DNA of 64,000 bases, from the IMG/VR virus record IMGVR_UViG_3300045988_108148; one strand, written 5' to 3'. Source of the stretch: a virus. The notes under the pieces are model-generated. The model did no database searches. It saw nothing but the letters and a program-made list of their open reading frames with translations, and was not told the origin of the DNA. This document shows, piece after piece, positions 7,080 to 58,257 of this stretch (its first letter is position 1; each line of letters begins with the position of its first letter). A program made the translations under genes and the position numbers.

Positions 7080-7640
7080 TTAATTTTTTGAAAGTTTATG
7101 AAAAATTTCTCTCAACCTACGTTTTGCCTTATTCAAATCGGATTTTACAGTTCCGATAGGAATTCCAAGCTTAACACTCAGTTGATCGTAACTAAGACCT
7201 TGATAGTATCTTAACTCGAGTAAATTTCGATACTTAGATCTTAGGCGAGATAATGCTATTCTTAGAAGTTCAATATTCTCCGTTTTAATCATATCTGACT
7301 CGGGATCTGGAGCTGTCTCTTCTAATTGAATAGTATTTGTCTCATTATCTATGCTGAAGTTCTTACATAAATCCTTTGTGGCTCTTATATGATCAATAGT
7401 AGTATTAACTGCTATTGTCTTAAGCCACGCTTCGAAGCTAATAGGATTTACATAAGAACTGAGTTTACTAAAGGCTTTTATGAATGTATTACTCAATAGA
7501 TCTTGAGTAAGTTCATCATCTTTGACTATATCAAAGATAATATATCTTATCAGTCTATGATACCGTTCATATAACTGATTAAAAGCCTTATCATCACCGT
7601 GTTTTGCTTGTTCAATTAAGATTTTTTCTTCTTCTTTCAT
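7080..7640 (-). CDS. ECF-type (group 4) sigma-70 family RNA polymerase sigma factor
   Basis: 186 aa. The region-2-like part reads FNQLYERYHRLIRYIIFDIV...DLLSNTFIKAF...FEAWLKTIAVNTTIDHIR. The region-4 helix-turn-helix reads LELRYYQGLSYDQLSVKLGIPIGTVKSDLNKAKRRL. Confidence 0.85.
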   Translation of the reverse strand: MKEEEKILIEQAKHGDDKAFNQLYERYHRLIRYIIFDIVKDDELTQDLLSNTFIKAFSKLSSYVNPISFEAWLKTIAVNTTIDHIRATKDLCKNFSIDNETNTIQLEETAPDPESDMIKTENIELLRIALSRLRSKYRNLLELRYYQGLSYDQLSVKLGIPIGTVKSDLNKAKRRLREIFHKLSKN

Positions 7641-9237: not shown

Positions 9238-9265
9238 AAGCTTTTTAAAATAATTAAATAAATTG

Positions 9266-9337
9266 TTATCTAGGTGGGATTCGAACCCACAATCTCCTGA
9301 TAAAATCCAGGGCTTTATCCAGTTAAGCTACTAGACA
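9266..9337 (-). tRNA. tRNA-like gene, Lys(UUU)-like, with a 16-nt (one nt short) anticodon arm
   Basis: The reverse strand (72 nt) reads TGTCTAG-TA-GCTT-AACTGGATA-AAGC-CCTGG-ATTTTA-TCAGG-AGATT-GTGGG-TTCGAAT-CCCAC-CTAGATA-A. It has a 7-bp acceptor (one G-U), a D arm with GG, and a canonical T-loop. The anticodon arm folds only as 5 bp plus a 6-nt loop, or 4 bp plus an 8-nt loop. No CCA is encoded. Confidence 0.5.
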
Positions 9338-16085: not shown

Positions 16086-16099
16086 ATATTAAAAATTTG

Positions 16100-16171
16100 A
16101 TCTCCTAGACAGGGTCGAACTGTCAATCTTCAGATAATAATACTGACGTTTTTCCATTAAACTATAGGAGT
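16100..16171 (-). tRNA. tRNA-like gene, Ile(UAU)-like
   Basis: The reverse strand (72 nt) reads ACTCCTA-TA-GTTT-AATGGAA-AAAC-G-TCAGT-ATTATTA-TCTGA-AGATT-GACAG-TTCGACC-CTGTC-TAGGAGA-T. A cloverleaf fits, with A1-A72 and U31-U39 mismatches. The 7-nt loop places UAU at positions 34-36 but an unusual U at 37. No CCA is encoded. Confidence 0.55.
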
Positions 16172-23123: not shown

Positions 23124-23630
23124 ATGGAATTAAAATTTAAGAAATTACAAGAAGATGCAGTATTACCTAGTTATGCTAACCCTAATGATGCTGGTTTAGA
23201 TTTAACAGCAATTTCCTTTACTCAGGAATTTGATAAGAGTGGTAAGTTAGTATTGGTATATCATACAGGTTTGTCAGTAGAGATTCCTGAAGGTCATGTG
23301 GGTTTGATCTTTATGAGATCGTCTATTTCTCAGAGATCTATGTCAATGTGTAATGCAGTAGGTGTTATAGATTGCGATTATAAAGGTGAGATTCTTGTTA
23401 AATTCAAGATTACTACAGATGCTCTTCCTACAATCTATCAACCAGGTGAAAAGATTGCTCAGTTAGTAGTAATGCCTTATCCGAAGATGGAGCCTGTAAT
23501 TGTAGAGGAATTAGCAGGCGAAGATCGTGGTGGTGGATTTGGTTCAACTGATAATAAAGAAGAAAATGAGAATGCAGAACAGGGACGAGAAAGCGGAGCA
23601 ACTGAAGGAGATAATCAATCAGTACAGTAA
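23124..23630 (+). CDS. dut: dUTP diphosphatase (dUTPase)
   Basis: 168 aa with dUTPase motifs AGLDL, RSSIS, GVIDCDYKGEI and RGGGFGSTD, plus an acidic C-terminal extension. Confidence 0.9.
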   Translation: MELKFKKLQEDAVLPSYANPNDAGLDLTAISFTQEFDKSGKLVLVYHTGLSVEIPEGHVGLIFMRSSISQRSMSMCNAVGVIDCDYKGEILVKFKITTDALPTIYQPGEKIAQLVVMPYPKMEPVIVEELAGEDRGGGFGSTDNKEENENAEQGRESGATEGDNQSVQ

Positions 23631-39718: not shown

Positions 39719-42700
39719 ATGAATAAAAAGATATCACAATTTGAACTAACAACTAAACTGCAAGAGCAAGACCTCATTACCCTTGTACAAGATGGTAGTA
39801 ATAAAAATATTACTAGTGGAAGTTTTACTACATCACTATCAGGTACATTTGCTACTAATGAGAGAGTAGATGCTGTAGAAGAAGATGTTGAGATACTAGA
39901 TACTAAAGTAAATGATAACTATAAAGATCTTAGTAATAAGATAGTAGAAGGAGATACTAGTGTAACTACTAATCTTAATAGTGCTATCACTAGTTACTAT
40001 GATGTATTGAATAATAAGATCATTACTTTAGATACTAAGCATGACACCGATATGTCAGAGATTGGTGGTACTATGCAAGAATGGATAGATGATATTGATA
40101 ATAGATCTACATTACAACAATTACAGGATGCTCTCAATAGACTTACTGTAGCTGAGAATACTATTACAGCATTATCTGAACTTATTGCAAATGGTGGAGG
40201 TAGTGGATCTGCTCCAGGCTATCACACCCAAAGTACTGCTACGATATTTCCTTTATCTGGTTATTATAAAGCAAATGATGCATCTCCATTAACTACTACA
40301 GATACATTAAATCAAGCTTTATCTAAACTTGAAAATCAAGTAGAAGCAGTAGCTAGCAGTTCTGGTTCTTTACCTGTTATAAAAAGAGGGGAAAGTACTC
40401 CACCAAGTGACTATTTTTTATATACCTCTGCAAAAGTAGCAGAAGATTATATTAATAAACACGGCGATGAGGTTGATGGAAGAATAGATTATATAACTGG
40501 TTGGCAAGGTGGTAAAACATTTAGACAAGGTTGGGATGGAGTTGGAGCTAGCTTATATCCTCTTGGATCTAAGTGGAATTTAGAACTGGACAATTTATTT
40601 GTAAGAGGCAACATGACAGTTAATGAACTTACAGTAAATGAAATCAAAGCTGTTGGTGGAGATATTCTCGTTACTGTTGCTGACATGAAGTGTGTCAAAG
40701 TAGAAGAATTAGCAGACTCTTATAAATGTTATTTTGATACAGAAGATGGAACTAAACATAATCAATTTATAGCTAATGATTTAGCAATATGTCAAAAATT
40801 TGATGGACACAATGTAAAGAGATACTGGCGTAAAGTTAATGCTACAGGAACAGACTGTATTTATTTATCTAAAGATGTATGTGAACCTGGTAGTGGAAAA
40901 CCAGAAGCAGATGATGAAATATTGCAATTAGGCCATATGTACGAATCTGATCCAGACTACAATTTACAAATGGATGAGAGACGTAATGCAATCTTTATTA
41001 GTGCTAAAGGTGAAAATGCTCCTAGAATATCATTCTATAAAAATATAGATACATTTTCATTAGCAGATGAAGATGGTCTTACTAGAGAAAGAGTAGTTAT
41101 TGGTGGAAATGAAACTAAATTTATAGGAACTATATCACAAACATCAGGAAATGATATAGTCAGAGTACCTGTATATAAAGGTGTATGGGTAGCCGGGAAT
41201 ACTTATTTTTATTATGATCAAGTAACTCATAAAGGTAGTTTATGGATTTGTATGAATCCTAATGGTACTAAGGACGAACCTAGTGAAACAGATGACGAGT
41301 GGCAGAAACAAGTAGCAAAAGGAGATGATGGTAAGTCTGGAGATGATGTTGCTAAATGGGTAGAAATAGTAGGAGACAGATTGTTTTTATTCCAAACTCC
41401 TGACTTTTCAGGTGTTCCAGAACCTACTAGCATTCACTTAACTGCAAATGTTTATGGCATAGAAGCACCGGTGTATGAGTGGACATATCAAGATGGTTCT
41501 GGTACAATTATATCACATCAAAGTTCGATTGATTTTCCATATACATCAATGCCTACAAGCTCTCGTACTTTAACGTTAAGGTGTACTGTAACACATTCAG
41601 ATGGAACTAAATATTATGACGATGTACAATTAGCAAAATTATCAAATGGTGCTGAGGGTTTAGATGCCTATTATATTGATTTAACTAACGGTACTGTTGC
41701 AATACCTTTTGCATCTGATGGTGTGACGCCATTAGTAGATTTAAGTACTATTAGTACTGCAGTATATGCATATAGAGGTATTAATCAAGTTGCAATTAAG
41801 ACGATAACCACTAATACTTCACAAGGTATAGCAACTGTATCTATTAATGCTAATACAATAACACTTACCTCAATATCTACAGCAAGTGCGGCAATAGATT
41901 TAAATGTTACATTAGAAGATGGTGTCAGTGTAACTAAAACATGGTATATTAATAAGACTTCTAATGGAGAAAATGGATTTAATGGTGAAGATGCTACATA
42001 TGTGACTATGTCAGGAGATCAATTTTTTCATTATAAATCTGGTGCTTTGATACCAGATCCAACTACTATTACTTTAACTACAGATGCATTTAATTTATTA
42101 TCTCCTACTTTTCAATGGTATTGGGCAATAGCAGGTACATACGATTGGCAGTTGCTACAAAATGAAACAAAAAATACATTAGTAGTTTCATATAATGGTG
42201 TTTATTTTACTAGTACAGGAAAAGATGAAATAACTTTCAAATGTGAAGTTAGTGGTTCTGGAACAGTATACTCAGACTTTATGACTATTAATAATGTAAG
42301 AGACGGTGAAAATGTATACAGAGGTATACTTACTAACGAAAATGCATCTGTTCCTGCTGATTCTGCTGGTGTAGTGTCTAGTTATAATACTGCTACTACT
42401 CAAGCAAGGTTAAAATATGGTTCACAAGAAATAACTGATTTTAAACTAATAACTACATTACAAACCGGTACTGGTACACTATCTTATACACAAAGTACAC
42501 AAACTATTAAATGTACTCAACTTGGTACTGATTACGCATTATGGAGAGTTGATTTTGTTACTCCAGCAACAGGTGGTACGGTTGTAGATTCAGTTGATTT
42601 TGTACTAACAAAAGCTAAATCTGGTACAGATGGTAATCCTGGTACAAGTCCAATACCTATATATTGTAATACTACTGGAAATAAACCTTCTAGACCAACA

Positions 42701-43912
42701 TTCACATCTAGGCCAACTGCTTCTGGGTCAAATAGTGGAGGTAATACATGGTATCCAGATGCTACATATAGTGCATCAGCTACTACTTGGATAAGTACCG
42801 GTAGTTATGATACAGTAACTAAACAGATTGTATATGATGAAAGTATTGGTGGTTATTGGACAGATCCTATAAAATTCTCTGGAAAAGATGGTGAGAAAGG
42901 TGATAAAGGAGACAAAGGTGATAAAGGAAATACTGGAGCACCTGGTTCAGATGGATGGAATGGTCCATCTTTAAGTTATCGTGGAGACTTTGATTATAAT
43001 AAATATTATGCATGGACAGTAAATCCAGATGTAAGAGACACCGTTAAATATAACGGAAAATATTACATGGTCGCAGATTCTAGAAGAAATTGGGGTTCGT
43101 TTCATAATGTTTATCCTACTAATGAAAGTTATTGGACAGTATTTGGAGCTAGTTTTGAATCTGTCGCAACTGGATTGTTATTTGCAGAAAAAGCAACTAT
43201 AGCTGGAATGGATTTTTATAATAATTGTATTCAAGCTCAAACTGGTAGATTTTTTATAGATGGGCGTTCAGCTTCTGATCTTGCTGGTTTGCCAATTATG
43301 TCATTTGGTGAAAATGCTTCTAAAGATGGAGTTCCGAGTTCTACTGCTGCAATAAAAATCTATGGTGGGGGTACTATTACTGTTGGTAATGGAACGGTAT
43401 CATCAAATGCTGGAATAACTGGACAAAATTATCCAACTGGAAATCCAGTTAGATTTTGGGCTGGAAATACTTTTGAAAGTAGAGAAAATGCTCCATTTAT
43501 TGTATATCAAAACGGTAGTATAAAAGCAACTAATGCAAATTTAACTGGAAGTTTTCAAACAACAAGCAGTGGTAATAAAGTAGTTATTAGTAATAGTAAC
43601 TCTATTTCTATGTACAACTCTGGTGGTCAACTTACATTATCAACTGGATTTTCTAGTTATGCATCAGGTTATGATATTGGTAATTTATCTTTTTACGCTA
43701 GAAATACATCAGGAAATGTATTAGGGCAAATTACAATGAATGCAGTGGGTATAACTATTGGAGGTGCTTCGAACGTTTTCCGTTTAGGTTTGTATTCTGC
43801 TGGATATATGAGAATGAATCATACTTCCATGCCTAATGATGGTACTTTATCTTCGTATCCATCGGGTACTATTTATAGAACATCTGATAATTACTTAAAA
43901 ATAAAACCATAA
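39719..43912 (+). CDS. tail fibre or spike protein with a collagen-like segment
   Basis: 1397 aa, Thr/Ser/Gly-rich and beta-type in composition. It has GKDGEKGDKGDKGDKGNTGAPGSDG (about 42881-42955). Confidence 0.75.
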   Translation: MNKKISQFELTTKLQEQDLITLVQDGSNKNITSGSFTTSLSGTFATNERVDAVEEDVEILDTKVNDNYKDLSNKIVEGDTSVTTNLNSAITSYYDVLNNKIITLDTKHDTDMSEIGGTMQEWIDDIDNRSTLQQLQDALNRLTVAENTITALSELIANGGGSGSAPGYHTQSTATIFPLSGYYKANDASPLTTTDTLNQALSKLENQVEAVASSSGSLPVIKRGESTPPSDYFLYTSAKVAEDYINKHGDEVDGRIDYITGWQGGKTFRQGWDGVGASLYPLGSKWNLELDNLFVRGNMTVNELTVNEIKAVGGDILVTVADMKCVKVEELADSYKCYFDTEDGTKHNQFIANDLAICQKFDGHNVKRYWRKVNATGTDCIYLSKDVCEPGSGKPEADDEILQLGHMYESDPDYNLQMDERRNAIFISAKGENAPRISFYKNIDTFSLADEDGLTRERVVIGGNETKFIGTISQTSGNDIVRVPVYKGVWVAGNTYFYYDQVTHKGSLWICMNPNGTKDEPSETDDEWQKQVAKGDDGKSGDDVAKWVEIVGDRLFLFQTPDFSGVPEPTSIHLTANVYGIEAPVYEWTYQDGSGTIISHQSSIDFPYTSMPTSSRTLTLRCTVTHSDGTKYYDDVQLAKLSNGAEGLDAYYIDLTNGTVAIPFASDGVTPLVDLSTISTAVYAYRGINQVAIKTITTNTSQGIATVSINANTITLTSISTASAAIDLNVTLEDGVSVTKTWYINKTSNGENGFNGEDATYVTMSGDQFFHYKSGALIPDPTTITLTTDAFNLLSPTFQWYWAIAGTYDWQLLQNETKNTLVVSYNGVYFTSTGKDEITFKCEVSGSGTVYSDFMTINNVRDGENVYRGILTNENASVPADSAGVVSSYNTATTQARLKYGSQEITDFKLITTLQTGTGTLSYTQSTQTIKCTQLGTDYALWRVDFVTPATGGTVVDSVDFVLTKAKSGTDGNPGTSPIPIYCNTTGNKPSRPTFTSRPTASGSNSGGNTWYPDATYSASATTWISTGSYDTVTKQIVYDESIGGYWTDPIKFSGKDGEKGDKGDKGDKGNTGAPGSDGWNGPSLSYRGDFDYNKYYAWTVNPDVRDTVKYNGKYYMVADSRRNWGSFHNVYPTNESYWTVFGASFESVATGLLFAEKATIAGMDFYNNCIQAQTGRFFIDGRSASDLAGLPIMSFGENASKDGVPSSTAAIKIYGGGTITVGNGTVSSNAGITGQNYPTGNPVRFWAGNTFESRENAPFIVYQNGSIKATNANLTGSFQTTSSGNKVVISNSNSISMYNSGGQLTLSTGFSSYASGYDIGNLSFYARNTSGNVLGQITMNAVGITIGGASNVFRLGLYSAGYMRMNHTSMPNDGTLSSYPSGTIYRTSDNYLKIKP

Positions 43913-43913
43913 T

Positions 43914-44252
43914 ATGAAATTATCTTTAGTAGATAGAGTTATAATAATAAATTCTATATTGCCAACCACTGGCACAATTGAACAAATTAGAACAATTCTA
44001 TCAATAAAAAACAAAATAAAATTAACAGAGCAAGAAAATGCATCTTTAAAAATAACAGTACCATATAATAATATTATCCAAATTGATAATATTACAGATA
44101 CAATGTTGTTAAGAGATACAGTATATAGTTTTTCTGTAGCTGAAATAGAATTATTAAAGTTGTTCTCTAATTCCATTAATTCAAATGGATGGGTAACTGA
44201 ATCTAGTTTAAGTACAGTAGAATATTTAATCAATTATACAATTGAAGAATAA
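43914..44252 (+). CDS. small protein between the two giant fibre genes
   Basis: ORF track, 112 aa. Abuts both neighbours. Confidence 0.6.
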   Translation: MKLSLVDRVIIINSILPTTGTIEQIRTILSIKNKIKLTEQENASLKITVPYNNIIQIDNITDTMLLRDTVYSFSVAEIELLKLFSNSINSNGWVTESSLSTVEYLINYTIEE

Positions 44253-47200
44253 TGATTAAGAATAATGTATATTATGAGTGGTTTGCAAGTATAACCGTAC
44301 CCAATCCAGATCAGGTTGGGTACTGGGTTGACTTGGGAGCAGATTCAAAAGGTAGAATAATTAAAGTTTACAATCGTGATATAGAAAAATGGATTGTACT
44401 CTTTGATGTAAGTAAAGATGACTATGTACCACCATTTATTGGTTCTAATGGCAACTGGTGGGTAGACAATAGAGATACTGGGGTAAAAGCTACTGCAGAG
44501 ACTCCATATATAGGTGAGAATGATCATTGGTTTACTTATGATCCTATCAACAAAGTATATGTAGATACAGGTATAGAAGCTCGTGGTCTTAGTGCTTACG
44601 ATATTGCAGTTAAATTAGGTTTCAAAGGTAGTGAACAAGATTGGATTGATAGTTTAAGTAAAGCATCTGAAGATGCTGCTGTTGCTGCACTAGATGCAGC
44701 TAACAAAGCAAATGAAGCTGCAGATAAAGCTAATCAAGCTGTAACAGATATTGAAGGTATAGTTGATGATGCTATCGCTGCTACTGATAAAGCTGAAGAA
44801 ATTGCTAGTAATCCACCAAAGATCGTAGATAATGATTGGTGGATTTATGACTACGATACTAAACAATATGTTAATACTGGTATAGCTGCTATTGGTGATG
44901 CTTTCACTTACAAGAAGGAATATCCTTCAGTAGAAGCAATGGAAGCTGATTGGGGTACTGCTGATGTAAAGTTAGGTGAGTATGTACTTATTAATACTAA
45001 TAATGTAGAAGATCCTGATGATGCTAAAGTTTACTTAAAGACTCAAGAAGGCTGGAAGTTTATTGTTGACTTATCTGGTATGCAAGGTATTCAAGGTTGG
45101 TCAGCATATGAACTTGCAGTAAAACATGGTTTTGTAGGTACTGAAGAAGAGTGGGTTCAATCATTAAAACAACCTGCATTAGATGCAGCAGCAGAAGCAT
45201 TAGAAGCTAAAGCTCAAGTAGAAGCTACTGAAAAAGCTGTTAAAGAAGCAGAAGCATTACGTGTTACTGCGGAACAAGGTAGAGTCAATGCTGAAAATAC
45301 CAGAGTAAGCAATGAGAATACACGCATCTCTAATGAAGATAACAGGAAAGCAGAAGAGTCTAAAAGGGTAACTGCTGAGAATGCTCGTATTGCTGCTGAA
45401 ACTTCTAGAAAAGAAGCAGAGTCTAGTAGGGTTAATGCAGAGTCAGATCGTGTAGAAGCTGAAGGTGCAAGAGCAGCAGCAGAGCAATTAAGGGCAAATT
45501 CTGAAAGTGAACGTAACACTAAGGAAAAAGAACGTATAGCTAATGAAGCAATTAGAGTTGCATCTGAAAGTGAAAGAGTAACTGCTGAGACTTCTAGAAA
45601 GGAGGAAGAAGCTAAGCGTGTAGAAGCAGAAACAGCTCGTGATACAGCAGAACAGGAAAGGGAATCAAATGAAGCCACTAGACAGGCAAATGAGGCGATT
45701 AGAGAGACTCAAGAGGCTGCAAGGGAAAAGAATACAGCTGATGCTATAACTGCCGTAAATGAGGCTAAAACAGCTGCACAACAAGCTACTACAAATGCAA
45801 CTACTGCTGCTAATAATGCTAACACTCAAGCAGCGAGAGCTAAAGAATATGCAGACAATCCTCCCAAAGTAGGAGAAGATGGTTATTGGTATCTTTGGGA
45901 TGAAGTTGATGATGTATATGTAAATACCGGTTGGCCATCTTCAGGTATTATTTTAAAAGGTAGACTTAACAGTCCAGAGGAACTAGGTGATATAGTAGAT
46001 CCGCAACTTAGTGATTCTTATATTGTTGGTACAGACTTATACTTTTGGAATGGTACAGAGTGGGTTAACATGGGTAGATTCCAAGGACCTCAAGGAGAAC
46101 CCGGTAAAGATGCTGAACTTAGTAAAGCAGCTATTGAAGCTGTATTAGTAGGTGAAGTAACTACTCATACTCATGATACTAGGTATTATACTAAGGATCA
46201 AACTGATGCTAATATAAAGGTAGTAGCAGATGATCTTGCTAACAACTACTATAATAAATCCCAAGTAGATAGTAAATTTACTTCTGTGTACATCTTTAAG
46301 GGATCTGTAGATAGTGTAGAAGATTTACCTACTGAAGGTAATGTGATTGGTGATGTATGGAATGTTCGTAAGAACGATACTAACTATGCATGGACAAGTG
46401 AAGGTTGGGATGCATTAGGAGGTACTGCTGAATTATCTTCATTAACTGCTAATGGTTTGATGTCCAAAGAAGATTTTGCAAAGTTACAAGGTATTGAAGC
46501 AGGTGCACAAGTCAATAAGATTGAAACCATTACTAAAAGAGTACTTTTGAATGTTGTAGATAAAAATGTAACTATACCAGAAGATATCGCAATTAGTCCA
46601 GATGAACCTACCAACAATGAAATCATCTGGATGGATACTGATGAAGATTATGACTTTACATTTGATGGGTATAGTAAAGTAGATGCTGATGCAAGATTTG
46701 TTCATCAAGTAGAGGGAAAAGATTTATCTACTAATGACTACAGTAATGCTGACAAAAATAAAGTAGATAATCTTAATAGTTACGTAACTAGTGGTAGTTT
46801 TGTACAAGATGCAAATAATGCTGCTATTACGTTGAATATTAAAGATCCTGTTACAGATAATAATTCCAATCAAGTACTCACTATTAACAAAGCTACCAGT
46901 ACTACTGCAGGTGTAATGTCTGCTGCTGATAAGACTAAGCTTGATGGGTTGAGTAATTACGATGATTCTACAATTACTCAGGACATTACCAACATAAAAG
47001 CAAACAAACTTGAGACAATTGAAGTAACTGGTACAGGTAATGTAATTACTACAGCTACTAAGAATGGTACTAAGATTGCATTTGCTAAAGGTATTACTGC
47101 AATGACTCAAGATGCTAGCGATGCCAGATATGTCAAAAAGGCAGGAGATACCATGACAGGTGCTCTTAATATAACGGCTGCTGGATACAATACTGAAGTT

Positions 47201-49033
47201 TCTTTAGATGGATTAAAATTAGAGACTTCTAAAACCAGTGCTAATGCAAAAGGTTTATTTTTTAGAAACTTTGATAAAACTGGTTATATTGGTGGAATTG
47301 GAATGTTTTCTACTGGAAACGGATCTATATATAGAGCTTATAATGCTTATGTAGGATGGGATAATAGTCCTTGGGATAGTGCTAATAATCTTACTGTATC
47401 TAAAGATGCATTTACTTATAAGAATAATAAAATATGGCATGCTGGTAATGATGGTTCAGGTAGTGGTTTGGATGCTGATTTGTTAGATGGATACCATGCT
47501 GGATATAAAAATGGTGATCTTGCATTATATATTAATCTTCCAAAAATAACTGATTTAATAAGTCAGGGTTTATTAAGATCAGATTATGAGACAGTTGGCT
47601 ATCCGACAGAGGATTTTTTGATTGCATTATGTAAATGGGCAATAAACAATTATATTGGTGAAACTTCCCATGTATTGCTACAAGGAGAGATTACTCCTGC
47701 TGTCTCGGGGTGGTGTGTTTTGGGTCTTTATGCTAATGATGGAAAAGATAACGCAACAGGATTACCAAAATATTGTTCAGGTCAAGTAAACTTAATTAAT
47801 AAAAGCTCCATATTATTCGGTTCTTATAATGGAACCTGGTATTATAAAACATTAGTAGATACTTCTAATCTAGAAGATACTCTAGCATACTGGTATGAAA
47901 ATGATGAAAACAATTCATCCACAACATGTGCAACAGGTGGTAATAGAAATGTAATTGAATCATTAAGAAGTAAGTTTAAGAGATGCATCGCTATGCCTAG
48001 TGGTGATGATGCTGCATTAATTAGTTATTGTAATGAAGAGGATAGTTCTAAATGGCCAGATAGTACAAACATTACAATTATGAACAACCATCAAAATAGA
48101 ATGGTTTATTTTCCAAAATACTATCACAAAACTATAGAGAGAAGCCCTGGCATTTGGAGAACCTATATATCTGAACAGCAAATAGATAGTAATTACATTG
48201 AAGAACCTGAAATGTTATTAGCTTCATTTGAAGGAGCGATAAACATAGAAGGTATGTTGATAAGTACAGCTTCACAGACAAGTGCAGCTTCAAAAACAAT
48301 GGCTGAGTTTGTTACAGCAGCTAAAACACATGGATCTTTATGGGGTATTGGTGATTATAGATCTCATGCAACTATAGCTAGAATGTTTTGTGCTTACTAT
48401 AAGACTACTAACATTAGTACAAGTAATAGTGCTATTCCATGTTCTGGAGGTACTAAGAGATATGACTACGGTAAGACTGGTGGGACAATAGCTCTTGGTA
48501 ATAAAGACGGTAAAGCTGCAGTTGTAGAAGATACAGGATATTACTCAACTAACTTCTTAGGACTTGAAGACTGCTATTACAGTAAGTGGGAGTTTGTACA
48601 AGGAATAAACATTTTAAAAGGTAAATACGTTGTATATGACGGAGGTTCATTCCCAGATAAGGATGTAGCAGAGCTTGAAGCAGCAGGTGCTACTAATATC
48701 AGAGTTGTGGGATATGAACCTAATCCAGCTGCAACAGCAGCATATAATGGATGGACTAAAGCCGTAGCTCAAGGCAAATATGGTGATGTAGTTCCTACAG
48801 CACATGGTGGATCTGAAACTACTTACTATTCCGATTATAGCTGGTTTAATCCAACAGGAAATAGAATCTTTCTACGGTCGGGTCGTTCGGCTAATGGTTC
48901 TCGGTGCGGGGTCTTCGTGGCTAGTGCTGGTAATGCTTCCTCGCTGTCGTGGGCGAATCTCGGTGCAAGATTAGCCTTTTATGGTAAGATCGTTGTAGTT
49001 GATTCAGATACATTTAAGAAAATGCAGGCATAG
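44252..49033 (+). CDS. tail fibre protein, target of the DGR (variable C-terminal lectin-like domain)
   Basis: 1593 aa. It has an Ala/Glu/Arg repeat coiled coil (about 45240-45720) and fibre repeats of the form LSTNDYSNADKNKVDNL. The C-terminus reads GSRCGVFVASAGNASSLSWANLGARLAFYG and coincides with the VR. Confidence 0.85.
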   Translation: MIKNNVYYEWFASITVPNPDQVGYWVDLGADSKGRIIKVYNRDIEKWIVLFDVSKDDYVPPFIGSNGNWWVDNRDTGVKATAETPYIGENDHWFTYDPINKVYVDTGIEARGLSAYDIAVKLGFKGSEQDWIDSLSKASEDAAVAALDAANKANEAADKANQAVTDIEGIVDDAIAATDKAEEIASNPPKIVDNDWWIYDYDTKQYVNTGIAAIGDAFTYKKEYPSVEAMEADWGTADVKLGEYVLINTNNVEDPDDAKVYLKTQEGWKFIVDLSGMQGIQGWSAYELAVKHGFVGTEEEWVQSLKQPALDAAAEALEAKAQVEATEKAVKEAEALRVTAEQGRVNAENTRVSNENTRISNEDNRKAEESKRVTAENARIAAETSRKEAESSRVNAESDRVEAEGARAAAEQLRANSESERNTKEKERIANEAIRVASESERVTAETSRKEEEAKRVEAETARDTAEQERESNEATRQANEAIRETQEAAREKNTADAITAVNEAKTAAQQATTNATTAANNANTQAARAKEYADNPPKVGEDGYWYLWDEVDDVYVNTGWPSSGIILKGRLNSPEELGDIVDPQLSDSYIVGTDLYFWNGTEWVNMGRFQGPQGEPGKDAELSKAAIEAVLVGEVTTHTHDTRYYTKDQTDANIKVVADDLANNYYNKSQVDSKFTSVYIFKGSVDSVEDLPTEGNVIGDVWNVRKNDTNYAWTSEGWDALGGTAELSSLTANGLMSKEDFAKLQGIEAGAQVNKIETITKRVLLNVVDKNVTIPEDIAISPDEPTNNEIIWMDTDEDYDFTFDGYSKVDADARFVHQVEGKDLSTNDYSNADKNKVDNLNSYVTSGSFVQDANNAAITLNIKDPVTDNNSNQVLTINKATSTTAGVMSAADKTKLDGLSNYDDSTITQDITNIKANKLETIEVTGTGNVITTATKNGTKIAFAKGITAMTQDASDARYVKKAGDTMTGALNITAAGYNTEVSLDGLKLETSKTSANAKGLFFRNFDKTGYIGGIGMFSTGNGSIYRAYNAYVGWDNSPWDSANNLTVSKDAFTYKNNKIWHAGNDGSGSGLDADLLDGYHAGYKNGDLALYINLPKITDLISQGLLRSDYETVGYPTEDFLIALCKWAINNYIGETSHVLLQGEITPAVSGWCVLGLYANDGKDNATGLPKYCSGQVNLINKSSILFGSYNGTWYYKTLVDTSNLEDTLAYWYENDENNSSTTCATGGNRNVIESLRSKFKRCIAMPSGDDAALISYCNEEDSSKWPDSTNITIMNNHQNRMVYFPKYYHKTIERSPGIWRTYISEQQIDSNYIEEPEMLLASFEGAINIEGMLISTASQTSAASKTMAEFVTAAKTHGSLWGIGDYRSHATIARMFCAYYKTTNISTSNSAIPCSGGTKRYDYGKTGGTIALGNKDGKAAVVEDTGYYSTNFLGLEDCYYSKWEFVQGINILKGKYVVYDGGSFPDKDVAELEAAGATNIRVVGYEPNPAATAAYNGWTKAVAQGKYGDVVPTAHGGSETTYYSDYSWFNPTGNRIFLRSGRSANGSRCGVFVASAGNASSLSWANLGARLAFYGKIVVVDSDTFKKMQA
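48874..48968 (+). repeat. DGR variable repeat (VR)
   Basis: 71/95 identical to 49145-49239 at a fixed offset of 271 nt. 23 of the 24 mismatches lie at template adenines. The segment is locally A-poor and GC-rich. Confidence 0.9.
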
Positions 49034-49144
49034 TCCTGAGTAATATAGATAATTAAATATTAATAACAAGGGCGGGATCTAAAAGAATTACTATGAGATG
49101 ACTTTATAGTAAGACTGCTGTCACATTATTTCATACTTGAAAAA

Positions 49145-49239
49145 ACAGTCAGGTAATTCAGATAATGGTTCTCGATGCAGAGTCTTCATAGCTAATGCTA
49201 ATAATGCATCCTCGAATTCATAGACGAATATCAGTGAAA
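49145..49239 (+). repeat. DGR template repeat (TR), non-coding
   Basis: It contains 33 A, of which 23 are substituted in the VR. In the VR frame it has AAT at most diversified codons and an in-frame TAG (49221-49223). No ORF covers it. Confidence 0.9.
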
Positions 49240-49335
49240 TTTTGGAACTAACAGATACTTTCAGATAATTACAAAAATGTTTGTTGAACTTAGATCAGCC
49301 TTACCTCTAGGTAAAAGATAACAGGTGCTTTGAAG

Positions 49336-49365
49336 AGACCCTAGTAGTATTGTGCGAACGGGTCT
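49336..49365 (+). other. stem-loop in the TR-RT spacer
   Basis: AGACCC (49336-49341) pairs with GGGTCT (49360-49365) around an 18-nt loop. It may be part of the DGR RNA. Confidence 0.35.
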
Positions 49366-49382
49366 TACCACCAAAATAGCTT

Positions 49383-50423
49383 ATGAAAAGAATAGGCAAT
49401 TTATTTAACAGGATAATATCATATGAAAATCTGGTCCGGGCTGAAAAGAAGGCTAGGCTAGGTAAAACTAAAAGATACGGCGTTAAGAAATTTGACAGGA
49501 ATCCACATGAAAATCTGGTCCGGTTACAAAAGGCATTAATAGAAGATACTTATCGTACTTCGGAATACTGCGTATATACAATCATCGCCGATCGTGGTAA
49601 CAAAGAAAGAGAAATATATAGGCTACCGTATTATCCAGACAGAATAGTCCATCATGCTATAATGAATGTTATAGAACCTTACCTTGTTAGTAGATTTACT
49701 GCAGATACCTTTAACTGTTTAAAAGGAAGAGGTATTCATTATGGAGTAAAGAGATTAAAAAGAGATTTAAAAGCTGATAAAGAAGGCACAAAATATTGTT
49801 TAAAATTAGATATTAAAAAGTTCTTTCCTTCTATAGATCAAGATGTGTTATATTCACAATTTGAAAAGGTATTTAAGGATAAGAAACTATTAAGATTATT
49901 ACATCATGTAGTTTATTCTACACCAAAAGGTTTTCCAATTGGAAATTACATATCTCAATTTGCAGCAAATTTGAATTTGACTTGGTTCGATAGGTGGATT
50001 AAACAAGTATTAAAAATAAAATATTATTACAGGTATTGTGATGATATTGTTATATTACACCCAGATAAAGATTACTTAAGATATTGCTTACAAGAGATTG
50101 AAAAATATCTAGCTGATAACTTGAAATTAAAAATAAAACGTAATTGGCAGATATTTCCTGTAGAAGTAAGAGGTATAGATTTTATTGGTTATGTATTTTA
50201 CCACGGTCATACTTTACTCAGGAAAGATATCAAAAAGAAGTTTATTCATAAATTAAGTTATAAAAGTAATAATAAGAGGCTAGCATCACTAGCAGCTTAT
50301 TGGGGATGGTGTAAATATGGAAGCTGTCATAATTTATGGTATCGCTTTACGAGATCTTATAATTTTAAAGATTATAGACAAAAATTATTAAGTGATGATG
50401 GAATTAAAAAAAGTACAGGGTGA
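49383..50423 (+). CDS. DGR reverse transcriptase
   Basis: 346 aa, with LDIKKFFPSI, the DGR-typical PIGNYISQ, the YxDD box RYCDDIVIL, and IDFIGY. Confidence 0.9.
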   Translation: MKRIGNLFNRIISYENLVRAEKKARLGKTKRYGVKKFDRNPHENLVRLQKALIEDTYRTSEYCVYTIIADRGNKEREIYRLPYYPDRIVHHAIMNVIEPYLVSRFTADTFNCLKGRGIHYGVKRLKRDLKADKEGTKYCLKLDIKKFFPSIDQDVLYSQFEKVFKDKKLLRLLHHVVYSTPKGFPIGNYISQFAANLNLTWFDRWIKQVLKIKYYYRYCDDIVILHPDKDYLRYCLQEIEKYLADNLKLKIKRNWQIFPVEVRGIDFIGYVFYHGHTLLRKDIKKKFIHKLSYKSNNKRLASLAAYWGWCKYGSCHNLWYRFTRSYNFKDYRQKLLSDDGIKKSTG

Positions 50424-50742
50424 TAATATACCTAAAGTAATAGAATACCTAGGAATGAATGAATGGGCAGTTAGATGGGATATTGAAGAAGTTAATTCTG
50501 AAGATATACATGGTTATGCTTATTATGAATTAAAATTCAATGAAGAACCAACCTACGATTCTTTTGTAAGTAAAATCATTAGAACAAAGTATAGTGCAGA
50601 TGAGGAAGCAGCATTAAAATCTAATATGGTTGAACAATTCATGAATGGAGAAATAATGCGTAGTCGTTTTGAAGAATGGCAAGCATTCCAAAATTGTAGA
50701 GACAATGCCAAATCTGTTGGTAGACAAATATTTAATATCTAA
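50395..50742 (+). CDS. small acidic protein downstream of the RT
   Basis: ORF track frame 50392..50742. The first ATG is at 50395, and the ORF overlaps the RT 3' end by 29 nt. It is Asp/Glu-rich, unlike Avd proteins. Confidence 0.6.
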   Translation: MMELKKVQGDNIPKVIEYLGMNEWAVRWDIEEVNSEDIHGYAYYELKFNEEPTYDSFVSKIIRTKYSADEEAALKSNMVEQFMNGEIMRSRFEEWQAFQNCRDNAKSVGRQIFNI

Positions 50743-50744
50743 TT

Positions 50745-52508
50745 ATGGTAATTAAAGTAAAAAATAATGGGGAATGGGTTAAGATACCATACCTGAGCTC
50801 GGATAACAATCCAATAATTCCAGAAGCTCCATTAGACGGTAAACAATATGCTAGACAAAGTGGTGAGTGGACAGTAGTCAACATACCAGAAGTAGATTTT
50901 ACTGAAATAAATAAAAAAATATCTCAAAACACTGCTGCTATTGCTGCTAATACTACAGCTATCCAAAGTAAAGTAGATAAGGTAGATGGATTTGGACTTA
51001 GTTCTAACGACTACACCTCTCAGGAGAAAACTAAGTTAGCAGGTTTAAGCAATTACACGTTGCCTACAGCTTCAGACACAGTTAAAGGTGGTATTAAAGT
51101 TGGTACAGGTTTAACCATGAATGGGGAAGTACTTAGTGCAACTGGTGGTGGTATGGCAGATTCAGTTGAATGGGATAATGTATTAAGTAAACCAGAATTT
51201 GCTACAGTTGCTACAAGTGGTGCATATAATGACTTAACTGGTAGACCAAGTTTAGCTACAGTTGCCACTTCTGGTAGTTATGCAGACCTTAGTAATAAAC
51301 CAACTATACCTACTGTGGATGTAACAAAGTCTTATGTAGATACACAATTAGCTACTAAAGCTAATGTAAGTAATGTATATACAAAAGCTGAAGTAGATAG
51401 TAAAGTTAGTAGTGTTTATAGAGTAAAAGGGTCTGTTGCTAGTTACGCTAACTTACCTACTGTGGATGTAACAATAGGCGATGTTTATAATGTTAATGAT
51501 ACTGGTGCAAACTATGTGGCTACATCTACTACACCAACATGGGATAAACTCAGTGAAACTGTAGATTTATCTGGTTATGCAACTACTGCTGCAATGAACT
51601 CAGCATTAGGTAACAAGGTTGATAAAGTATCAGGGAAATCCCTTAGTACAAATGATTATACTACAGCTGAAAAAAATAAGTTAGCTGGTATTGCAGCTAG
51701 TGCAAATAATTACAGTTTGCCTGCAGCTACTTCATCTGTGTTAGGAGGTGTTAAAACTAGTACTGGTATTACTAACTCATCTGGTACAATTAGTGTAACA
51801 TATGGTACTGCAGCTGGAACTGCTTGTCAAGGAAATGATTCGAGACTAAGTAATTCTCGTCCAGCATCTGATGTTAGTGCTTGGGCTAAAGCTAGTACAA
51901 AACCAACTTATGCTTGGACTGAAATTACAAGTAAACCTAGCTGGATTGGTTCATCTAAGCCCACCTATACAGCATCTGAAGTTGGTGCGTTAGCTAGTGG
52001 AGGTACTGCAGTAAATGCATCGAAAGTTGCCAATTCATTTATATTTAAAGTAGCAGGAGGAAGTACAGAAGGTACAAATTTGTATACCTTTAATGGATCT
52101 GCAGCTAAAACAATTAATGTAGTAGCTGGTAGTAATGTAACCCTTACTCCTACTGCAGGACAATTAAGTATATCTGCTAAAGATACCACATATGCAGTTG
52201 CTACCACATCCGCTAACGGTCTAATGAGTTCTGCAATGGTAACCAAATTAAATGGTGTAGCCACTAATGCTAATAATTATTCATTACCAACAGCAACCAG
52301 TTCTGTATTGGGTGGAGTAAAAACTGGAAGTAACATTACAAATTCTTCTGGAACTATTTCTTTAAGCAGTGGTAATGTAACTAGCGCACTAGGCTACACA
52401 CCTGTTAAAAATGAATCTGGTGTAGCAAGCATTAGGGTTATGACTCAATCTGCATATGATGCATTATCAAGTAAATCAGCAACAACGTTATATATAATTA
52501 CAGGTTAA
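50745..52508 (+). CDS. tail fibre protein with internal repeats
   Basis: 587 aa. The motif (S/T)xNDYTxxEKxKLAG recurs. Two near-identical blocks are present: NNYSLPAATSSVLGGVKTSTGITNSSGTIS and NNYSLPTATSSVLGGVKTGSNITNSSGTIS. Confidence 0.8.
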   Translation: MVIKVKNNGEWVKIPYLSSDNNPIIPEAPLDGKQYARQSGEWTVVNIPEVDFTEINKKISQNTAAIAANTTAIQSKVDKVDGFGLSSNDYTSQEKTKLAGLSNYTLPTASDTVKGGIKVGTGLTMNGEVLSATGGGMADSVEWDNVLSKPEFATVATSGAYNDLTGRPSLATVATSGSYADLSNKPTIPTVDVTKSYVDTQLATKANVSNVYTKAEVDSKVSSVYRVKGSVASYANLPTVDVTIGDVYNVNDTGANYVATSTTPTWDKLSETVDLSGYATTAAMNSALGNKVDKVSGKSLSTNDYTTAEKNKLAGIAASANNYSLPAATSSVLGGVKTSTGITNSSGTISVTYGTAAGTACQGNDSRLSNSRPASDVSAWAKASTKPTYAWTEITSKPSWIGSSKPTYTASEVGALASGGTAVNASKVANSFIFKVAGGSTEGTNLYTFNGSAAKTINVVAGSNVTLTPTAGQLSISAKDTTYAVATTSANGLMSSAMVTKLNGVATNANNYSLPTATSSVLGGVKTGSNITNSSGTISLSSGNVTSALGYTPVKNESGVASIRVMTQSAYDALSSKSATTLYIITG

Positions 52509-52509
52509 T

Positions 52510-53187
52510 ATGATAAAGTTAGGAAGTACAGATATAACAAATGTAATGTTGGGAACAACTAAGGTGGACGCAATATTTCTTGGCAATACGAAAGTGTATC
52601 CAAATCCACCTGTAGTAGAAGGAGTATATGTATATCACGTGGATAAGAAATTTTATACTTTTCCTGAATTTCAAAAATTATCCAATACTGCTATATCACA
52701 AGTTCTTGGATTTGCTATTATAGATAATCAAGGTTCGTTTTTATTGCCACCTAGAGTAAATCTATCTAATGGCTACAGGTGGTGTCCTGAAAATTTTGAT
52801 ACTTTCCTAGTACCAGATGTTGGAATTGGTGTTGATGATATTAATGGTAGACAAAATACAGAAATAATGCACGATACCTTTCAAAATGTTGCTGGATCAA
52901 ATGAGTATGCTGCTGGATATGCATATCGTTTTACTCCTGTACCGATTGGTACTAATTGGTATTTACCATCTATTGGTGAACTTATTATAATTTACATGTA
53001 TATGTCAGAATTGAATGATTGGGTATTTGATACATTTGGCTTTTCTTATTTTGGTTATAAAGCTCTTTGGTCTTCCACACAACAAGATGCTACTACAGCT
53101 TGGCAATTAGATATTTCTGGTAGTGCATACAATACAGTAGCAAAGAGAACCCTCAACGCAGCACTCCCAGTAATTAAATTAGGTTAA
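52510..53187 (+). CDS. DUF1566-like (Lcl C-terminal-type) putative carbohydrate-binding protein
   Basis: 225 aa. NWYLPSIGELIIIYMY...ALWSSTQQDATTAWQLD...RTLNAALPVIKL matches the W-LPS--EL / WSST / AW pattern I associate with DUF1566. Confidence 0.6.
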   Translation: MIKLGSTDITNVMLGTTKVDAIFLGNTKVYPNPPVVEGVYVYHVDKKFYTFPEFQKLSNTAISQVLGFAIIDNQGSFLLPPRVNLSNGYRWCPENFDTFLVPDVGIGVDDINGRQNTEIMHDTFQNVAGSNEYAAGYAYRFTPVPIGTNWYLPSIGELIIIYMYMSELNDWVFDTFGFSYFGYKALWSSTQQDATTAWQLDISGSAYNTVAKRTLNAALPVIKLG

Positions 53188-53282: not shown

Positions 53283-53321
53283 AACGCTAGCTAATCTTGT
53301 ATTGGTTAGCGTTTTGTTTTT
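53283..53321 (+). terminator. intrinsic terminator
   Basis: AACGCTA (53283-53289) pairs with TAGCGTT (53307-53313), followed by TTGTTTTT. It overlaps the TTG-initiated start given in the ORF track for the next gene. Confidence 0.65.
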
Positions 53322-53347
53322 CAATCATCCTCTTTCAAATTGTTGTA

Positions 53348-53893
53348 ATGTTACAAAGACTAAATAATATTATATTAACGGCTCAAAGTGTAGCTACAGT
53401 GAATTACTTTAAAGAATTAGTTAATGATGGACCAATTAAATTTATTGCCTGTTTACTTTCTGGCATAATGGGTTGGTTATCTACATTCTTTGCTCCCATA
53501 TATGCAGTAATAATTGTAGTATGTGTATTTATATTATTAGACGCAATTCTTGGTACGAAGGTATCAATTACTCATGGTGGTAAGTTTGAGTCTAGAAGAT
53601 TGTGGTCTACTTTAAAGAAATTCGGAAATTGTGCAATGATAATTTCTTGTTGTCATCTTATGGACACGGAGATATTAAAGTCGATAGACATGCATTTGGT
53701 AGAAGGATTTTCAGGAATTGTTTGTGGAGTTGAGTTGTGGTCAATGATCGAAAATCTCCAAGCAATTGACCCCACTGGACCATGGAAGATCTTCAGTAAG
53801 TTCATACGGAGCAAAGGAGAAAAGTATTTGGATATTACAATAGAAAAAGATGATTTACCAAAGATAAAGAAACTTGTAAAAAAGATAAAATGA
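53348..53893 (+). CDS. holin-like multi-pass membrane protein
   Basis: ORF track frame 53297..53893, trimmed to the ATG past the terminator (MLQRLNN...). It has 3-4 hydrophobic helices and a DAILGTKV motif as in phage holin family 4. Confidence 0.6.
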   Translation: MLQRLNNIILTAQSVATVNYFKELVNDGPIKFIACLLSGIMGWLSTFFAPIYAVIIVVCVFILLDAILGTKVSITHGGKFESRRLWSTLKKFGNCAMIISCCHLMDTEILKSIDMHLVEGFSGIVCGVELWSMIENLQAIDPTGPWKIFSKFIRSKGEKYLDITIEKDDLPKIKKLVKKIK

Positions 53894-57825: not shown

Positions 57826-58257
57826 ATGGAATTAAAATTAAATAGAATCTTTCTAGGTAGTTCTGCAACCATTGGAGAATTGTATGTTGATGGGGAACAC
57901 ATAGCAGACACTCTTGAAGATAGAGTGAGACCAGAAGGAGAAAAAGTTTATGGTAAAACTGCAATATCCGAAGGTACTTATGAAGTTAAATTAACTTATT
58001 CACCAAGATTCAAGAAAATATTACCAGAAATACTTAACGTACCTAATTTTAGTGGGATTAGAATTCATAGTTTAAATAAAGCTGAAGAGAGTGAAGGATG
58101 TATTGGGGTTGGTGAATGGAATGGCAAAGACACGAATTGGATTTCTAATTCTAGGAAAACATTTAATAAATTGTTTGCATTACTAGAAGAAGCAAACAAC
58201 AATAAAGAAAAAATCACAATAACTATAAATAACTCATGGAAAGCTGTAAAGAACTAA
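57826..58257 (+). CDS. DUF5675-like protein with a YkuD-like H...SxGC motif (candidate cell-wall enzyme)
   Basis: 143 aa. IRIHSLNKAEESEGCIGVG resembles the His/Cys active-site spacing of L,D-transpeptidase-fold proteins. The function is tentative. Confidence 0.5.
   Translation: MELKLNRIFLGSSATIGELYVDGEHIADTLEDRVRPEGEKVYGKTAISEGTYEVKLTYSPRFKKILPEILNVPNFSGIRIHSLNKAEESEGCIGVGEWNGKDTNWISNSRKTFNKLFALLEEANNNKEKITITINNSWKAVKN

Follow-up and report, generated by a model that had tools for sequence, protein, structure and literature searches.

A probable diversity-generating retroelement aimed at the C-terminus of a 1593-residue tail-fibre-like protein in a crAss-like phage

The prototype among diversity-generating retroelements (DGRs), that of phage BPP-1, is organised as mtd-avd-TR-brt, where TR is the template repeat and brt encodes the reverse transcriptase (RT). 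Tens of thousands of DGRs have been catalogued in gut phages (PMC8241571). Among crAss-like phages, a layout without avd, running target-variable repeat (VR)-TR-RT, has been published for the Alpha, Epsilon and most Zeta groups (PMC7290462, PMC11054128, PMC12386605), and the RTs of the crAss-like DGRs in PMC7290462 are assigned there to "lineage 3." One of these reports (PMC11054128) mentions DGR cassettes in crAss-like families including the Suoliviridae, citing Yutin 2021, the main text of which makes no mention of DGRs or RTs; earlier description of a DGR in the Suoliviridae lineage appears thin. Here, we describe a probable DGR of this lineage in a 64,000-nucleotide (nt) stretch of viral DNA, IMG/VR record IMGVR_UViG_3300045988_108148 (the window; positions are counted from its first letter), and compare it with these systems.

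We put the probability that this element is a DGR of a crAss-like phage of the Suoliviridae, close to cr10_1 and cr50_1, at about 93%. Since the same layout has already been published in crAss-like phages, it would be an ordinary DGR rather than a new kind. The cassette consists of the target gene with its VR, about 110 nt, the TR, a 143-nt spacer and the RT, with no avd gene among them. The components are as follows.

44252-49033, + strand: target gene, coding for a tail-fibre-like protein of 1593 amino acids (aa) with matches to PHROG tail protein and tail fibre families
47999-49030, + strand: C-terminal receptor-binding module bearing the VR, with a C-type-lectin/FGE-like fold predicted by AlphaFold2 and Foldseek
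48874-48968, + strand: VR; its hypervariable core, 48884-48959, covers target residues 1545-1570 (26 codons)
48960-48974, + strand: 3' boundary segment TCGGTGCAAGATTAG, where variability ends sharply after 48959; likened by analogy to an initiation of mutagenic homing (IMH) site
49145-49239, + strand: TR, non-coding, with seven AAT codons and one TAG in the VR frame
49383-50423, + strand: DGR-type RT of 346 aa, starting 143 nt past the TR, with PIGNYISQ and YCDD motifs

VR and TR align at a fixed offset of 271 nt with 71 of 95 positions identical. Adenines of the TR account for all but one of the 24 mismatches (A>G 16 times, A>C five times and A>T twice), and 23 of the 33 adenines in the TR are altered in the VR. 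Outside the adenines, 61 of 62 positions are identical, the sole exception being T49217 against G48946. With adenines at 33 of the 95 TR positions, a binomial calculation puts the chance that 23 or more of 24 mismatches land on them at 4.4e-10. In the VR frame, the template's AAT codons are changed to CGT, AGT, GGT or CTG, and adenine content falls to 10.5% in the VR, as against 35% in the TR, the target open reading frame (ORF) and the window as a whole. The original prediction for this stretch had given the same offset and counts, the diversified AAT codons and the adenine-poor VR; the computed alignment reproduced them exactly and confirmed the restriction to adenines. A scan with adenines masked, run on both strands of the whole window, found nowhere else with more than 33 of 62 non-adenine matches. 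No second VR or target was present in the window or in the complete cr10_1 genome, and judged from these two sequences the DGR has a single target.

IMG/VR contains 572 sequences related to the RT, and the analysis used the best 80. About 55 are close (83-99% identity) and carry the same locus; the others among the 80 share 50-56% identity and represent other phage DGRs, referred to here as distant loci. The distinct close sequences compared numbered 41 in a gap-free alignment, 39 for nucleotide diversity and for each genome's own TR/VR pair, and 42 for outcomes in the VR. In the 41 aligned sequences the TR is nearly invariant, and from 48884 to 48959 most VR columns whose template is an adenine contain all four bases. 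Nucleotide diversity in the VR is 0.42 at these columns versus 0.021 elsewhere, with values of 0.009 for the TR and 0.005 for the intergenic stretch 49034-49144. Setting each relative's VR against its own TR gives 883 mismatches, of which 860 fall on adenines (A>G in 586, A>C in 172 and A>T in 102), so that the adenine-specific mutagenesis signature originally predicted from one repeat pair holds across the family. Beyond the hypervariable zone, the TR/VR differences at 48876, 48880, 48962 and 48966 are constant in all relatives. The 15-nt segment past 48959 equals the TR at 10 of 15 positions, and its differences, which include G at 48962, C at 48966 and positions further on, are fixed in 41 of 41 genomes.

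The VR also differs sharply between genomes with closely similar flanks. One pair of relatives (L040 and L042) shows 14 differences in 3,066 flanking nt and 16 in the 95-nt VR; the window and another relative (L019) show 53 and 21, respectively. In such pairs, flank divergence is 0.5-1.7% versus 17-22% in the VR. In addition, five independent metagenomic assemblies (L006, L043, L047, L056 and L026/cr50_1) stop in the VR or no more than about 50 nt away, and cr50_1 (NC_055868) has a 55-nt terminal overlap that ends where the VR begins. Assembly ends at this position are the expected product of VR heterogeneity within a sample, which these breaks suggest. We regard the comparisons between genomes as good evidence for recent DGR activity in the lineage, indirect where the source sample is concerned.

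Two relatives carry altered cassettes. In L015 (IMGVR_UViG_3300045988_059899), a deletion of about 140 nt (equivalent to about 49094-49234) takes out the whole TR and leaves the RT ORF and the spacer; by its sequence, the cassette is disabled and its VR frozen. In L035 (IMGVR_UViG_3300045988_037015), the 5' half of the TR (equivalent to 49160-49208) bears 13 substitutions at adenines, comprising A>G, A>C and A>T, that differ from those in its own VR, as though part of the template had been written over with mutagenised complementary DNA (cDNA) or an earlier VR.

That such decayed relatives exist speaks for the alternative that the fibre was diversified formerly and that the element is now dead here, its VR frozen. 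Published crAss-like DGRs are, moreover, often incomplete (PMC7290462, PMC11054128), and the variation that we describe lies between genomes rather than in current reads. We nevertheless consider this reading quite improbable. The RT ORF has its full length, can be aligned with the Bordetella phage enzyme bRT from end to end and retains the catalytic motifs; the window's TR agrees with the family consensus at all but about one position (49174); the RNA elements described below are all intact; and both the excess of VR over flank divergence and the assembly breaks at the VR count against it.

Two further patterns were observed among the relatives. The fibre body (48274-48873) has a diversity of 0.11 versus 0.005-0.017 for 48969-49382, from the end of the VR to the spacer, and the two parts may have separate histories, the cassette being conserved or exchanged on its own. 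The non-adenine mismatches include 13 of 23 that are T>G, mostly at a T right behind one or two adenines. These lie at third positions of AAT-derived codons in VR 48892-48958, the window's 48946 among them, and could stem either from the RT or from selection that favours codons for Lys, Gln, Glu, Met, Trp or Leu.

The RT matches Pfam RVT_1 (E = 2.3e-16) and phrog_1423 (E = 3.5e-107). Its best PDB sequence match is 8ub7_A, by its sequence bRT (E = 7.6e-44, residues 2-326), which stands 28 orders of magnitude ahead of the next solved homologue, the group II intron RT 6ar1 (E = 2.5e-15); retron-type and defence-associated reverse transcriptase (DRT) enzymes follow. Residues aligned to K29, R74 and I76 of bRT are conserved, as are the IGxxxSQ (here IGNYISQ) and YxDD motifs. 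Against the NCBIfam models for retron, group II intron and DRT enzymes, the RT scored 62, 103 and 67, where the cut-offs are 235, 300 and 200, and PADLOC returned generic RT matches only. The protein has no maturase or endonuclease extension, and an Rfam scan found no group II intron or retron RNA. The position and motifs originally predicted for the RT were recovered, and homology search, rather than phylogeny, places it in the DGR clade and apart from the retron and group II intron enzymes.

These results bear on a second alternative, in which the repeats are a decayed ordinary duplication that happens to lie beside an unrelated retron, group II intron or defence RT. In GenBank, the RT homologues of cr10_1 and cr50_1 do carry the label "Retron-type reverse transcriptase" (the target homologue is a "hypothetical protein," and TR and VR have no annotation), and generic RT models of defence libraries match. 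The cross-genome pattern already refutes this explanation: the restriction to adenines (P = 4e-10 here) recurs in the TR/VR pairs of 39 distinct relatives. The low retron, group II intron and DRT scores, the negative Rfam scan and the lack of an extension on the RT tell against it as well, and we give it next to no credence.

The target appears, as originally predicted, to be a tail fibre. It matches phrog_5302 (E = 5e-43, residues 1252-1576) as well as phrog_3904 and phrog_15437, and has no Pfam or NCBIfam match. Searches of its last 344 aa against PDB with the single sequence and with a profile yielded nothing meaningful, and in a second profile search with the C-terminus only close relatives were among the matches listed. 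The C-terminal module belongs to a family of 4,400 representatives at 50% clustering that has no Pfam model, and other members carry it in fusions with fimbrillin-like, T7-tail-fibre or Mtd_N domains. A first AlphaFold model built from 39 close sequences had a pLDDT of 49.6 and was discarded and kept out of the fold search. With 75 diverse sequences, AlphaFold2 modelled the last 344 aa at a pLDDT of 93.3 and a pTM of 0.92. The best Foldseek match of this model in PDB is the DGR variable protein TaqVP (5vf4; E = 1.8e-11, probability 1.0), at only 15% identity and a TM score of 0.43-0.47. Further matches include TvpA (2y3c, E = 0.012), Mtd (1yu0-4, E = 0.04-0.13) and EgtB-IV (8vih, 8vil and 8vii, E = 0.03-1.0), with other EgtB-, OvoA- and SenA-type sulfoxide synthases lower in the list. 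TaqVP, TvpA and Mtd, all DGR variable proteins with solved structures, fall within the top eight PDB matches, beside FGE-like/EgtB chains. Against BFVD, the model matched many phage "tail collar fiber" proteins, including proteins from other crAss-like phages, with TM scores of 0.64-0.77. The modelling that the original prediction had called for is consistent with the lectin-type DGR scaffold it proposed and points to a C-type-lectin/FGE-like fold for the domain that bears the VR.

The affiliation of the phage is drawn from nucleotide comparison of a 6.2-kb segment only. This segment is 93% identical to cr10_1 (Canhaevirus; Suoliviridae, Boorivirinae) over 89% of its length and 90% identical to cr50_1 (Cohcovirus); both of these phages come from human faeces. 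On this similarity, the phage would belong to the Suoliviridae (Delta crAss-like) of the order Crassvirales. The window covers 64 kb of a genome of about 100 kb and leaves about 36 kb of the phage genome outside.

The spacer and the region upstream of the TR contain several RNA elements, listed here with the predicted priming strands.

49070-49082, + strand: 5' strand of a long-range helix, pairing with 49290-49301 and bracketing the TR
49290-49301, + strand: 3' strand of that helix, the 12-13 nt directly before the short hairpin
49302-49322, + strand: short hairpin UACC-UCUA-GGUA followed by an A-rich run, equivalent to P1 of Rfam RT-17
49324-49372, + strand: second stem-loop, with a core of 49335-49341 paired with 49360-49366, just before the RT start; equivalent to RT-17 P2 and present in the minimum free energy (MFE) fold
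49297-49386, + strand: sub-threshold match to Rfam RT-17 (RF03020) over the full model length (E = 0.0064)
49231-49238, + strand: predicted template strand UCAGUGAA, inside the IMH*-like segment 49231-49245, by analogy with BPP-1
49280-49287, + strand: predicted primer strand UUUGUUGA, ending at the candidate priming adenosine A49287

As a whole, the MFE fold of the TR and spacer is no better than shuffled sequences (z = -0.36), and the structure was recovered only by comparison with relatives. The helix 49070-49082 : 49290-49301 has a predicted energy of -14.1 kcal/mol by RNAduplex, matched by 1 of 200 control windows. It recurs in the same position at 12 loci, where both sides are changed in 10 of its 13 pairs. 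Its variable part covaries between loci (UUAGAUC/GAUCUAA, ACAUCACA/UGUGAUGU, GCAGUACA/UGUACUGC, AAGGGAG/CUCCCUU and others). On a gap-free alignment of 12 sequences, 94.1% of cells pair versus 71% in shuffles and 34-45% in slid controls, and twelve pairs are changed on both sides, which none of 500 shuffles equalled; the choice of helix register for each sequence with RNAduplex favours the pairing counts. The short hairpin, with its 4 bp, tetraloop and A-run, is kept in 13 of 13 loci with compensatory stems (UACC/GGUA, UGCC/GGCA and UAGC/GCUA). In the second stem-loop, one relative (L048) changes A49336:U49365 to G:C and G49337:C49364 to G:U. Covariation across 12 loci thus argues for a structured spacer RNA with a helix that brackets the TR.

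The arrangement corresponds to the "cPRT Stop" seen by cryo-EM of the bRT-Avd-RNA complex, which comprises a helix joining the spacer to sequence upstream of the TR, a stem-loop and adenosines (bioRxiv 10.1101/2023.10.23.563531). At 26.3 bits, the RT-17 match in the window lies under the gathering score of 40.4; eight distant DGR loci have RT-17 at the equivalent position with 41.9-50.7 bits, over that score. The window's spacer is best called a divergent relative of the RT-17 RNA, as far as the covariance model can tell. A perfect 7-bp inverted repeat, TTACTAT ... ATAGTAA, with an 11-nt loop (49088-49112, + strand) also lies in the presumed DGR RNA, after the upstream helix strand and ahead of the TR.

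In BPP-1, the priming adenosine (Sp A56) lies two nt ahead of the spacer helix strand (bioRxiv 10.1101/2023.10.23.563531), and two unpaired nt likewise separate A49287 from the long-range helix. By this analogy, we infer A49287 to be the priming site. In a register paired by hand rather than by a tool, UUUGUUGA and UCAGUGAA form 8 pairs, 3 of them G-U. The proposed duplex would make A49230 the first copied base, matching the last hypervariable VR position, 48959, and the VR counterparts of the adenines within it (49233, 49237 and 49238) never vary in relatives. The MFE fold favours a different primer register, 49223-49231 with 49277-49285, which we rejected solely since it would leave hypervariable positions uncopied.

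The adenines of the TR do not all behave alike in the VR. Those before G (49147, 49151, 49160, 49179, 49181, 49190, 49222 and 49233) correspond to G in 38-42 of 42 distinct VRs. Within the hypervariable zone, an adenine followed by G yields G in 94% and A in 3% of cases; where A, C or U follows, the VR has G in 30-38% and A in 34-52%. Three synonymous-type sites before G gave G in 116 of 125 instances, compared with 53 of 118 at three comparable sites before U (Fisher P = 8e-17). As the effect holds at synonymous-type sites, protein-level selection alone is insufficient to explain it, and an enzymatic cause is likely. Twelve distant DGR loci whose TRs differ show G in the VR for 40 of 42 adenines in this context; some of these sites are near TR edges and may go uncopied.

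This rule allows the TR to carry an in-frame TAG that is read as a Trp codon in the VR. Copied faithfully, the TAG at 49221-49223 would cost the fibre 27 codons; of 42 VRs, 40 have TGG at this site and none has TAG. Recoding by a suppressor tRNA was considered and set aside; none was found, and the target ORF itself stops at TAG. A 2026 study of the bRT error spectrum found the 3' neighbour to be dominant and proposed transient slippage in which the preceding template base is re-used, shown for NAC contexts (PMC12875486). The same model leads one to expect incorporation of C, that is A>G, in NAG contexts. The pattern may represent such an RT slippage bias; an effect of this kind in natural sequences fits the 2026 model and is relevant to the design of synthetic TRs and to predicting the accessible repertoire.

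Combining these observations, we envisage the following mechanism. An RNA of about 49070-49380 would be transcribed, probably within a late tail-gene transcript. The helix 49070-49082 : 49290-49301 would loop the TR off and, together with the hairpin and A-run at 49302-49322, serve as a BPP-1-like "cPRT Stop." The RT, bound to the spacer, would make cDNA by cis-priming, probably from A49287 paired beside TR 49231-49238, and would copy the TR leftwards starting at A49230, misincorporating opposite adenines. The cDNA would then substitute for VR 48884-48959 and re-randomise up to about 20 codons of a C-type-lectin-like surface at the fibre tip, and this new surface could alter host-receptor specificity. 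The adenines before G would encode fixed residues, the TAG-to-TGG Trp codon included.

Several observations weigh against this reading of the element. A Pfam scan of 41 small ORFs in the window found no Avd (PF05635), and bRT is inactive without Avd (bioRxiv 10.1101/2023.10.23.563531). The IMH-like segment 48960-48974 is not GC-rich, and no GC-rich IMH is present. No significant hairpin follows the VR (DNA fold of 48955-49070 against shuffles, z = -1.36). The case for activity is built on comparison between genomes rather than on reads from the source population. To these may be added the points raised above on helix register, RT-17 score, primer register and the distant sites near TR edges. 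A hairpin or cruciform following the VR was dismissed on both the fold test and a palindrome search, which found only AT-rich palindromes further downstream. In BPP-1, an inverted repeat or hairpin after the IMH enhances homing; it is not universal.

The core features of a DGR are nonetheless present, namely an RT that homology assigns to the DGR clade, an adenine-specific TR/VR pair, a hypervariable VR on a predicted C-type-lectin fold and, by covariation, a structured spacer; Avd and the post-VR hairpin, which were not found, are optional. The plain DGR reading of the original prediction therefore stands, neither of the outcomes that it named as refuting having been seen, with the qualification, which it left unremarked, that the locus is not a full copy of BPP-1.

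Avd-like proteins are found in most DGRs (bioRxiv 10.1101/2023.10.23.563531), and an accessory gene is said to be missing from roughly one DGR in four (PMC7290462). The ORFs flanking the cassette had no relevant accessory match in Pfam, NCBIfam, PHROGs, PDB or PADLOC, and "Serglycin" matches in the concatenated scan of small ORFs were artefacts of the GS linkers used to join them. One candidate accessory gene was considered.

50392-50742, + strand: ORF of 116 aa, overlapping the 3' end of the RT by 32 nt

This ORF is present in all close relatives at 68-100% identity, is absent from the distant DGR loci and has no match in the same five resources. We rejected it as a DGR accessory, restricted as it is to the close phage family.

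The RT may still be non-autonomous and depend on an unrecognised substitute for Avd supplied from elsewhere in the phage or by the host. The inactivity of bRT on its own and the prevalence of Avd-like proteins favour this, as does the fact that only 64 kb of the roughly 100-kb genome is covered and the function of most ORFs is obscure. Other evidence makes it doubtful: the 41 small ORFs of the window give no PF05635 signal, the 116-aa ORF matches nothing known and is missing from distant DGR loci with the same type of RT and RNA, and the same avd-less layout occurs in other crAss-like DGRs (PMC7290462). In the distant relatives, moreover, only a few nt separate the end of the TR from the primer strand, where BPP-1 has the Avd-binding stem-loop. 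This leaves no room for such a stem-loop, in line with the absence of Avd.

We tentatively propose instead a minimal DGR that is independent of Avd, an idea that we rate as possible, short of probable. It would keep the RNA logic of BPP-1 (a stop helix bracketing the TR, hairpin, A-run and cis-priming), would have lost the Avd-binding arm and would read its adenines in two ways: adenines before A, U or C are randomised, and those before G become G nearly always, probably by re-use of the just-copied G as template. Under this proposal, the TR would have a two-letter code, "vary here" and "fix here," and the TRs of AT-rich genomes could drift from G to A at fixed positions harmlessly.

Around the cassette lie the following ORFs.

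39719-43912: tail-fibre-like ORF, flanking the target ORF
43914-44252: small ORF with no match in Pfam, NCBIfam or PHROGs
50745-52508: tail-fibre-like ORF, flanking the target ORF

Two genes past the RT, a 225-aa ORF (52510-53187, + strand) matches phrog_4245 and, weakly and below the cut-off, Lcl_C (DUF1566-type, C-lectin-like; E = 2.8e-4); the repeat scan found no VR for the TR in it. The Avd scan also brought up Pfam matches for an ECF-type sigma-70 factor (7080-7640, - strand), a dUTPase (23124-23630, + strand), a holin (53297-53893, + strand) and a DUF5675 protein (57826-58257, + strand). In the early/middle gene region, a Hatchet ribozyme (RF02678; 13323-13449, - strand; 98.9 bits) and a RAGATH-22 RNA (RF03098; 10576-10742, - strand; 191 bits) both score well over their gathering scores. 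There are two tRNA genes (9265-9337 and 16099-16171, both - strand). The first kind is tRNA-Ile(TAT); ARAGORN gives no assignment to the remaining gene, whose anticodon arm is odd and seems to carry a loop of 6 nt, AUUUUA. A promoter and terminator scan gave results at chance level and is not informative for this host.

As a DGR, the element is routine and belongs to a well-known kind of system. Its identification would mark which of several huge fibre genes in an abundant group of uncultured phages bears the receptor-binding surface and would pinpoint 26 codons relevant to host range. By comparative evidence, a "cPRT Stop" architecture like that of BPP-1 persists in this lineage, where no Avd can be recognised, which makes it a small natural system for asking whether Avd is dispensable. 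The comparison also ties the orphan Rfam motif RT-17 to DGR function; for RT motifs other than RT-10, a DGR role had merely been speculated (Weinberg et al. 2017, PMC5737381).

Among known systems, BPP-1 shares with this locus an RT homologous over its full length (E = 7.6e-44), with IGxxxSQ and YxDD common to both, and, at the 3' end of the gene for a tail fibre with a C-type-lectin fold, an adenine-specific TR/VR pair. The two also have in common a TR-RT spacer of about 140 nt, a helix between the region upstream of the TR and the spacer, a short stem-loop, adenosines and a candidate priming adenosine two nt ahead of the helix. They differ in that no avd gene was found here, the distant relatives have no counterpart of the Avd-binding stem-loop, and neither a GC-rich IMH nor a post-VR hairpin is present. 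Template codons are AAC in BPP-1 and AAT here. The upstream helix strand lies inside avd in BPP-1; here it is intergenic, as the TR comes directly after the target gene. As to Rfam families, the spacer is RT-10 in BPP-1 and RT-17-like here.

The Rfam RT-17 RNA (RF03020; Weinberg et al. 2017, PMC5737381) likewise sits directly upstream of the RT start, with a CCUURCC-NNNN-GGYAAAA hairpin and a UGGUAG...CGAA stem-loop. The window differs from it in having about 45 extra nt between the TR and the motif and an upstream helix partner that falls outside the Rfam model. The closest structural match of the fibre tip, TaqVP of Thermus aquaticus (PDB 5VF4), is a stand-alone protein, compared with the tip of a 1593-aa fibre here; TaqVP is also the best match for the target of an Epsilon crAss-like DGR (PMC11054128).

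In organisation, the locus resembles the DGRs of crAssphage LMMB and the genus I Alpha crAss-like phages (PMC7290462). LMMB belongs to the Intestiviridae and has a 486-aa target, as against the 1593-aa target of a phage placed here in the Suoliviridae/Boorivirinae, and the likeness is one of layout, not of RT or TR sequence. Both loci run target gene-VR-TR-RT with no avd, with an IMH and an IMH* at the repeats of the published DGRs and IMH-like and IMH*-like segments here; both place the VR in about the last 35 codons of a tail (collar) fibre; and in the Alpha crAss-like phages, as in the family described here, complete and decayed cassettes occur side by side among relatives.

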